From the sequence record PQ511148.1: DNA of 64,000 nucleotides; one strand, given 5' to 3'. Positions 38,995 to 40,095 of the stretch are shown piece by piece. The position numbers and the translations under genes are program-made. The notes beneath the pieces were generated by a model. That model searched no databases and was not told the DNA's origin. It saw nothing but the letters and a program-made list of their open reading frames with translations. The DNA comes from Escherichia phage NHEP10. The number at the start of each line of letters is the position of its first letter. Positions within the stretch are counted from its first letter, which is position 1.

Positions 38995-40095
38995 TTACGC
39001 TGTGAAGATTTTATCCCACATCGCAACAACTGCATCTCGATTATACTTCTTCCATACTGCTTCAGCACGTTTAACTCGAGCTTCGTATGTGTCAGTGAAT
39101 TCTAATACAGCTTTTGTGTAAAGCGCAACTACTTCTTTCTTAGGAGTAGAGGAATCAATTTCTACACGCACAGTATCTGGGTCGTATTCGAATGTCGCAT
39201 GAGGATAATCCTTAAAAACTAACTGGATTACAGGGACACCTTTAGAGATGGCTTCAATAGAACTATTCTCTACCGTACCTGTGTCAGGACACGTATTAAT
39301 AAGCGCTTTAGCTGTTTTAAGACGTTCCATGATTTCACTGTGTGGAGCATCAATAATAACAGGATATTTAGCTGGTGGTGCCCATTTACTAGGACAGTAT
39401 CCTACACCATTTTCGCCTAGTGCTTTAATCGCTTCAAGAGCAACATCAGTACGACGCATTTTAGTGTCATAACGTTGTGCACTAATAATCAGATCAGTCG
39501 CCGGAAGAACTTCAGGTTTCTCATTCAAACAAATAACCGGATAATCTTCGGCTTCAAACAACGGATTTGCTCGCCAATAATCGTAATCAATTTTGTCAGT
39601 CAGACCTGAAGTCATATAACAATATTTGCGTTCAAATTCACGGAAGGCTTTAGTAGGAGCATAACTCTTACCGCCATTCTTATGAATTTGAATAGTCTGG
39701 TCCCAAATTTGAACAATGCCACGAGATACCGGTTCAAATGGTGTTGCCATAAAATTCTTATGAACTTTAGAGAGACCTGCGTCTTTAATTGCCTGAACGG
39801 TTAGTTTAGTCGGTTCCATAGTAACAACAAAATCGTATTCATGGATGCCGGCTAGTTCAACAATCTTACGAGCCATAGTATAACTCATACCTAGACTGAA
39901 TTTAGTCAGATGACCAACAGGATGGTGCGTAACTTTCCAGTCACCAAACATGTCATTATCAAAGCCGATATAATCAATATCAGCACCGATGGACACAAGA
40001 TATTTCAACACATTTAAATGTACTGCTTCAAGACCACCTTGTACACGGTCAGGATTAAATGGGACTGCGCGAGATGGGATAAACATAACTTTCAT
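38995..40095 (-). CDS. putative glycosyltransferase (GT-B fold-like)
   Basis: 366 aa; C-terminal nucleotide-sugar-binding signature TGTVENSSIEAISKGVPVIQ resembling GT4 motif E..hEA...G.PVh; no counterpart at this locus in T4 as far as I recall. Confidence 0.55.
   Translation of the reverse strand: MKVMFIPSRAVPFNPDRVQGGLEAVHLNVLKYLVSIGADIDYIGFDNDMFGDWKVTHHPVGHLTKFSLGMSYTMARKIVELAGIHEYDFVVTMEPTKLTVQAIKDAGLSKVHKNFMATPFEPVSRGIVQIWDQTIQIHKNGGKSYAPTKAFREFERKYCYMTSGLTDKIDYDYWRANPLFEAEDYPVICLNEKPEVLPATDLIISAQRYDTKMRRTDVALEAIKALGENGVGYCPSKWAPPAKYPVIIDAPHSEIMERLKTAKALINTCPDTGTVENSSIEAISKGVPVIQLVFKDYPHATFEYDPDTVRVEIDSSTPKKEVVALYTKAVLEFTDTYEARVKRAEAVWKKYNRDAVVAMWDKIFTA

Follow-up and report, generated by a model that had tools for sequence, protein, structure and literature searches.

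Which step of DNA glycosylation is performed by a glycosyltransferase (GT) gene lying beside the rII genes was the question raised by one locus of Escherichia phage NHEP10. The window analysed is a stretch of 64,000 nucleotides of this phage (sequence record PQ511148.1), and the gene is a minus-strand open reading frame (ORF) of 366 amino acids (Table 1). A first-pass annotation, made from the letters of the sequence, had given its coordinates and length exactly and had read it as a GT-B glycosyltransferase inserted between rIIA and gene 39; it does lie between these two genes, though strictly its neighbours are rIIA.1 and gene 39. Whether a T4-like phage escapes a given restriction, CRISPR or glycosylase defence is determined by the glycan hypermodification of its cytosines, which therefore matters for host range and for the selection of therapeutic phages. 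The ORF was identified as the equivalent of ORF003c (gp3) of phage RB69, and it probably encodes the second, chain-extending arabinosyltransferase acting on the DNA of this phage.

Relationship to ORF003c of phage RB69

The phage of the window is a member of Mosigvirus (RB69-like). Comparison of the 366-residue protein to those of related phages showed 98.9% identity to RB69 ORF003c/gp3 (NP_861693.1), 98% identity to Bas47 bas47_0105, and approximately 99% identity over the full length to a GT of phage HY126 (PDB 9IQZ and 9IR0). These represent the same gene, with 98-99% identity across all 366 residues and the same synteny, and differ by only a handful of substitutions (e.g. M49T, Y160H, G164A and S315F relative to HY126). 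A match to PHROG 8302 likewise spanned residues 1-366 (E=4.5e-222). The HY126 entries, released on 2025-07-16, are crystal structures titled 'phage HY126 glycosyltransferase', in the apo form for 9IQZ and with uridine diphosphate (UDP) for 9IR0. RB69 ORF003c, also of 366 residues, was earlier proposed to be the arabinosyltransferase of RB69 on the basis of hidden Markov model (HMM)/HHpred searches and a Phyre2 model (Thomas 2018, PMC6024577). Due to its near identity to both this proposed arabinosyltransferase and the crystallised HY126 protein, the ORF is a rediscovery of an already described gene, the location, fold, crystal structure and proposed role of which were published between 2018 and 2026. 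The suggestion of the first-pass annotation that the gene belongs to an RB69-type system of DNA sugar modification was thus borne out, while the non-canonical GT of RB69-like phages, which it had named as a separate comparator, turned out to be this very gene.

Between the ORF and its Bas47 counterpart, 40 synonymous and seven non-synonymous codon differences were found, and the protein could be aligned end to end with homologs from Acinetobacter phages and metagenomes at 35-43% identity. Together with the crystallisation of a protein that is about 99% identical, this codon and alignment pattern indicates a real gene under purifying selection. A megablast search with the locus returned 163 phage records, nearly all of Escherichia or Shigella Mosigvirus with 95-99% identity. 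As both flanks were included in 153 of these (at least 80% of window positions 38600-40200 covered), the synteny rIIA - rIIA.1 - GT - gene 39 is fixed in the genus, and the annotation of 308Ecol101PP and Bas47 gives the same order at this locus.

Fold and sequence motifs

An AlphaFold (AF2) model of the protein was found to match 9IQZ/9IR0 first, followed by more than 200 GT-B enzymes, mostly of the GT4 type, and to consist of two Rossmann-like beta/alpha/beta domains separated by a cleft. The GT-B fold that had been predicted for the ORF was thereby recovered. Binding of a nucleotide-sugar donor is indicated by the presence of UDP in 9IR0, as stated in its PDB title. The best non-self structural neighbours were PimA, WaaG and WaaB, which are GTs for lipids and lipopolysaccharide (LPS), at 12-15% sequence identity. 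Like the retaining GT-B enzymes of the GT4 type (PimA, WaaG/WaaB, BshA, MshA, GlgA), the protein is built of two Rossmann domains and has a Gly-Gly loop in its N-terminal part and an ...EA..G.PVI... helix in its C-terminal part. However, identity to these enzymes is 12-16%, and the ORF has neither a Glycos_transf_1 match nor their E-x7-E motif. It is also predicted to differ from them in using a sugar on DNA as acceptor and in forming a beta linkage, whereas GT4 enzymes retain configuration.

The profile search for a GT family, which had been recommended as a check, gave no GT-domain match for the ORF in Pfam (E<=1) or NCBIfam, and none of Glycos_transf_1 (PF00534), Glyco_trans_1_4 and Glyco_transf_4 reached the gathering threshold. 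For the Acinetobacter homologs of phage DLP2, a Pfam scan likewise gave no family at E<=1, and a search of the family profile against all PDB sequences returned only the HY126 protein. The C-terminal peptide TGTVENSSIEAISKGVPVIQ, which the first-pass annotation had taken for a GT-B signature, is present at residues 272-291 as part of a family-invariant block, NTC..GT.E..S.EAI..G.PV.QL. This block aligns with the ...EA..G.PVI... stretch of Glycos_transf_1, solely via the remote relative P0015 (hhalign probability 96.5%), whose own Pfam matches at that stretch are sub-threshold (E=0.013 for Glyco_trans_1_4, and 0.048); a second remote relative, P0010, gave a sub-threshold GT4-conflict match (E=0.003). 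In the ORF itself the signature was statistically undetectable and the canonical C-terminal E-x7-E was absent, the corresponding motif reading DTGTVENSSIEA (E276-x4-E281) and the sole E-x7-E of the protein starting at residue 86, in the N-terminal half. As modelled, the protein has a GT-B fold with GT4-like architecture, membership of GT4 not being demonstrable by sequence.

The worst-modelled part of the protein is the segment of residues 115-188 (window positions ~39532-39753), with predicted local distance difference test (pLDDT) values of 25-40. Within the family its conservation is high, with T118, P119, R125, G142 and F151 invariant and a motif RGIVQxW...HKxGGK..PT, and it may be a module that binds the acceptor or DNA.

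Place of the enzyme in DNA arabinosylation

The chemistry of RB69 DNA has been resolved using tandem mass spectrometry (MS/MS) and nuclear magnetic resonance (NMR), which showed cytosines to be replaced by mono- and di-arabinosylated 5-hydroxycytosine (5hoC), with a disaccharide of beta-D-arabinofuranose (Araf) and alpha-D-Araf, beta-D-Araf-(1->3)-alpha-D-Araf, ether-linked at C5 (Lee 2026, PMC13326640). The base is made as 5-hydroxy-dCMP (5hodCMP) by RB69 gp48, a thymidylate-synthase homolog whose activity was confirmed experimentally, and the product of gp46:47 has been proposed to be the first arabinosyltransferase (Lee 2026, PMC13326640). An ORF of each type was identified in the window (Table 1).

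In the reading that we favour, dC would be replaced by 5-hydroxy-dC with the precursor supplied by the 5hodCMP synthase, after which a first transferase, probably the 299-residue gp46:47-type protein, would add alpha-D-arabinofuranose onto O5 of the base. The 366-residue enzyme would act after replication: with UDP-arabinofuranose bound by the C-terminal Rossmann domain, it would link a further arabinofuranose to O3 of the sugar already in place. This would give beta-D-Araf-(1->3)-alpha-D-Araf-O5-hydroxy-dC, as in RB69-type DNA, and the longer glycan may provide extra shielding from DNA-targeting host defences. The order of gp46:47 first and gp3 second follows a published proposal in which gp3 is labelled 'beta-arabinosyltransferase 2' (Lee 2026, PMC13326640), and a second sugar step is also the model of the Durham collection paper (PMC13390438). 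The first-pass annotation had left a choice between the DNA-modifying transferase of the phage and a second sugar-adding step. The latter corresponds to the current published model, while the ORF is probably not the primary transferase, since an unrelated GT candidate (the 299-residue protein) adjoins the 5hodCMP synthase.

Outside Mosigvirus, homologs of the ORF were identified only as the two tandem GTs of Acinetobacter phages of the Lazarusvirus type. In phage DLP3 these are gp77 and gp76 (ADLP2_047 and ADLP2_048 in DLP2), which are members of the same family, 43% and 40% identical to the ORF when aligned from end to end, and which have in common with it an invariant GGL loop, QRxD...R and the NTC..GT.E..S.EAI..G.PV.QL block. 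When supplied with UDP-Araf, the DLP3 pair added a third arabinose to RB69 DNA in vitro, both copies being required, and no single GT was active on DNA with 5hoC alone (Lee 2026, PMC13326640). The DLP3 genes are found in tandem within the cluster, beside a kinase gene, unlike the single copy of the window phage, which lies ~20 kb off the cluster at the rIIA.1/39 junction. Furthermore, the copy number of the ORF003c-type gene was found to track the reported length of the arabinosyl chain. No copy is present in phages that have the gp46:47-type GT alone. Mono-arabinosylation was reported for Thanatos, which has no copy and encodes a single arabinosyltransferase (Lee 2026, PMC13326640), di-arabinosylation for RB69, NP and Bas46/47 with one copy, and tri-arabinosylation for DLP3 with two (Lee 2026, PMC13326640). 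In a second-hand account (PMC13216743), deletion of 'arabinosyltransferase Aat' from Bas46 is described as leaving the phage viable and sensitised to a defence system, an outcome that fits an accessory step. The activity of the homologs, the copy pattern and the fit of the Aat report together argue for chain extension as the probable role of the 366-residue enzyme.

Several points weigh against this assignment. The allocation of the second step to gp3 is called a proposal by its authors (Lee 2026, PMC13326640), and ORF003c had earlier been taken to be the final and only arabinosyltransferase (Thomas 2018, PMC6024577). In DLP3 neither paralog was active without the other, yet Mosigvirus has a single copy. 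The AF2 model is only moderate (mean pLDDT 65.8, with residues 115-188 below 50), due to the homolog family being too shallow. Lastly, the enzymes closest in structure are of the retaining GT4 type, yet the second linkage is beta. It is doubtful, though conceivable, that the enzyme is mechanistically unusual among GT-B enzymes, with a retaining-type, GT4-like scaffold lacking E-x7-E that joins Araf to Araf by a beta-(1->3) bond, the acceptor sugar being borne by duplex DNA. Were this so, and the donor UDP-alpha-D-Araf, a scaffold of the retaining type would be carrying out an inverting reaction, and segment 115-188 would be a new module recognising a DNA-borne glycan without base flipping.

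A different order of events is suggested by the same earlier work, in which ORF003c was the sole GT candidate of RB69 from HMM searches and was proposed (for 5-hydroxymethylcytosine, hmC) to act on the base (Thomas 2018, PMC6024577). The ORF would then be the base-proximal transferase, adding the first arabinose straight onto 5-hydroxycytosine, with the 299-residue protein doing something else. A study of 'hydroxylation and arabinofuranosylation' in HY126 chose this GT for crystallisation, and the 299-residue protein was found to have no GT signature in Pfam or NCBIfam. Set beside the location of that protein next to the 5hodCMP synthase, such a role for the ORF is considered unlikely.

Similarities to the two DNA glucosyltransferases of T4 were also considered. 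Like a-gt and b-gt, the 366-residue protein is a GT-B enzyme that would act post-replicatively, with a UDP-sugar donor, on a modified cytosine in phage DNA; it differs in the sugar, in the chemistry of the base and, most likely, in accepting a sugar rather than the base. Thomas 2018 (PMC6024577) and several GenBank labels ('putative hmC-arabinosyltransferase' for Bas47, 'DNA alpha-glucosyltransferase' for NC_018855) would make it an hmC-directed DNA glycosyltransferase, a functional substitute for a-gt/b-gt, and hmC was likewise the acceptor supposed in the first-pass annotation. However, the MS/MS and NMR data show an ether linkage to 5-hydroxycytosine and not hmC in RB69 DNA, the ThyA homolog of the window is identical at 237 of 238 residues to the confirmed 5hodCMP synthase gp48, and no profile similarity to a-gt or b-gt was detected. 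An hmC-directed role is therefore highly improbable. The hhalign probability of a 9-sequence family profile against each of the two T4 enzymes was 0.3%, a value from shallow profiles (Neff, the number of effective sequences, 2.6) that does not contradict the HHpred match of 2018, for which much deeper profiles were used (Thomas 2018, PMC6024577). A non-DNA acceptor (host lipid, LPS or phage protein), as might be read from the structural neighbours PimA, WaaG and WaaB and from one GenBank record annotated as a phosphatidylinositol mannosyltransferase, is scarcely credible, given that identity to lipid and LPS GTs is so low (12-15%), that the only real homologs are encoded in phage clusters for DNA arabinosylation and use DNA as substrate in vitro, and that the family is confined to phages with the 5hoC pathway.

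Genomic context, cluster and distribution

On the minus strand the genes follow the order gene 39, 366-residue ORF, rIIA.1 and rIIA. The 42-nucleotide spacer between gene 39 and the ORF contains a terminator-like hairpin and an AAGG Shine-Dalgarno-like sequence before the ATG. The hairpin is GC-rich with a TTCG loop, overlaps the stop codon of gene 39 and lies 27 nucleotides upstream of the GT start. In a promoter and terminator scan around the ORF, the number of terminator-like sites was not above that expected from shuffling, and no expression class is claimed. In the related record MK327933, a 'terminator' is annotated within the hairpin stretch.

Table 1. Features of the window discussed in the text, with their coordinates and assignments
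Feature	Coordinates	Strand	Description
rIIA	36476..38689	minus	
rIIA.1	38702..38902	minus	Pfam T4_RIIA1 E=2e-30
Glycosyltransferase ORF	38995..40095	minus	ATG start, 366 aa; ORF003c/gp3-type GT-B, probable second (chain-extending) DNA arabinofuranosyltransferase
Terminator-like hairpin	40122..40139	minus	AAGCTCC-TTCG-GGAGCTT then T-run; consensus match only
Gene 39	40138..41955	minus	Unsplit topoisomerase II large subunit, 605 aa; GyrB, HATPase and Toprim domains
uvsX	58858..60030		
Nucleotide-kinase-like ORF	60129..60677	minus	182 aa; RB69 gp45 equivalent (position matches ORF045c); faint dTMP-kinase P-loop match only; first cluster gene after uvsX
gp46:47-type ORF	60678..61577	minus	299 aa; candidate first (base-proximal) arabinosyltransferase; 46% identical to DLP2_045
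5-hydroxy-dCMP synthase	61577..62293	minus	238 aa; ThyA homolog, RB69 gp48 equivalent; Pfam Thymidylat_synt E=2.4e-15
79-aa ORF	62335..62574	minus	RB69 ORF049c equivalent by position only
U32-family protein	62571..63740	minus	389 aa; RB69 gp50 equivalent; Pfam Peptidase_U32 E=6.4e-11

In T4, the slot between rIIA.1 and gene 39 was found to hold gene 60, 60.1 and a mobA remnant, and a-gt and b-gt are situated at 36.6 kb and 24.4 kb, both away from this junction, in agreement with the earlier statement that T4 has no GT here. The split of T4 genes 39 and 60 (mobA, 60.1 and translational bypass in gene 60) occurs at the exact junction where the window phage has its GT. The Mosigvirus gene lies ~20 kb from the arabinosylation cluster, in a slot with mobile-element-associated DNA in T4, while the Acinetobacter-type copies lie inside the cluster, an arrangement that may reflect relocation or separate acquisition.

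The cluster itself begins in the window directly after uvsX. Besides the 5hodCMP synthase gene, the window carries those of the gp46:47-type GT and of the kinase-like and U32-family proteins, and from RB69 the sugar-nucleotide genes (RB69 gp51-55) are expected beyond base 64000. RB69 gp45 was given as a nucleotide kinase on account of its predicted fold, and gp50 was listed only as a 'sugar or heterocycle reductase' (Lee 2026, PMC13326640). The 299-residue protein showed no similarity to the 366-residue ORF. Its ORF is intact in the window, whereas in the GenBank record of RB69 it is split into ORF046c and ORF047c by one extra T (GTAG-GTG vs GTAGTGTG, alignment column 545). This single extra T supports the published claim that the gp46:47 split of RB69 is a sequencing error.

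Homologs of the U32 ORF were found in 221 phage records, all with at least 80% amino acid identity, including Shewanella phage Thanatos-2 at 82%, while the adjoining gp46:47-type GT is only 60-69% identical in several other host genera. Judging from counts by host genus, no Acinetobacter phage carries the U32 ORF, and the GT-carrying Dhakavirus-like coliphages seem to lack it too. The U32 proteins RlhA, TrhP and UbiU act in hydroxylation that is independent of O2, and by analogy the ORF might provide an anaerobic route to 5hoC. The idea that it is an O2-independent hydroxylase absent only from phages of strict aerobes was weakened by its seeming absence from the Dhakavirus-like coliphages.

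A word-indexed search of 5.8 billion proteins placed the ORF003c type in five 90%-identity clusters, and an exhaustive profile search yielded 11 matches among 1.84 billion representatives; on these searches the family is very small and isolated. It was identified in 211 phage records, with one copy per Mosigvirus genome and two per Acinetobacter-type genome. The gp46:47 type was found in 348 phage records and adjoins the ThyA homolog wherever annotation was shown; these records comprise Mosigvirus and Dhakavirus-like coliphages and phages of Klebsiella, Enterobacter, Serratia, Yersinia, Erwinia, Proteus and Acinetobacter.

Most records label the ORF003c-type gene 'hypothetical protein', and besides the NC_018855 and Bas47 labels given above, OR062945 carries 'putative GDP-mannose-dependent alpha-(1-2)-phosphatidylinositol mannosyltransferase'. 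These public labels are uninformative or inaccurate, and the 5-hydroxycytosine chemistry is mentioned in none of them. The practical value of the present result lies in the annotation of such inconsistently labelled records; otherwise it adds nothing new.

A single 'Tegunavirus' match was examined as a third lineage and rejected, as the record has two copies with scores like those of Acinetobacter phages. This record (OZ038340.1, 'Tegunavirus sp. BRC001') matches P0005 at 70%, equal to phage Berthold, and its scores are Lazarusvirus-like. The arabinosylation cluster is present in phiR1-RT, a bona fide Tegunavirus, but this phage is not among the records matching the ORF003c-type GT. The name of OZ038340.1 may be a taxonomic mislabel.
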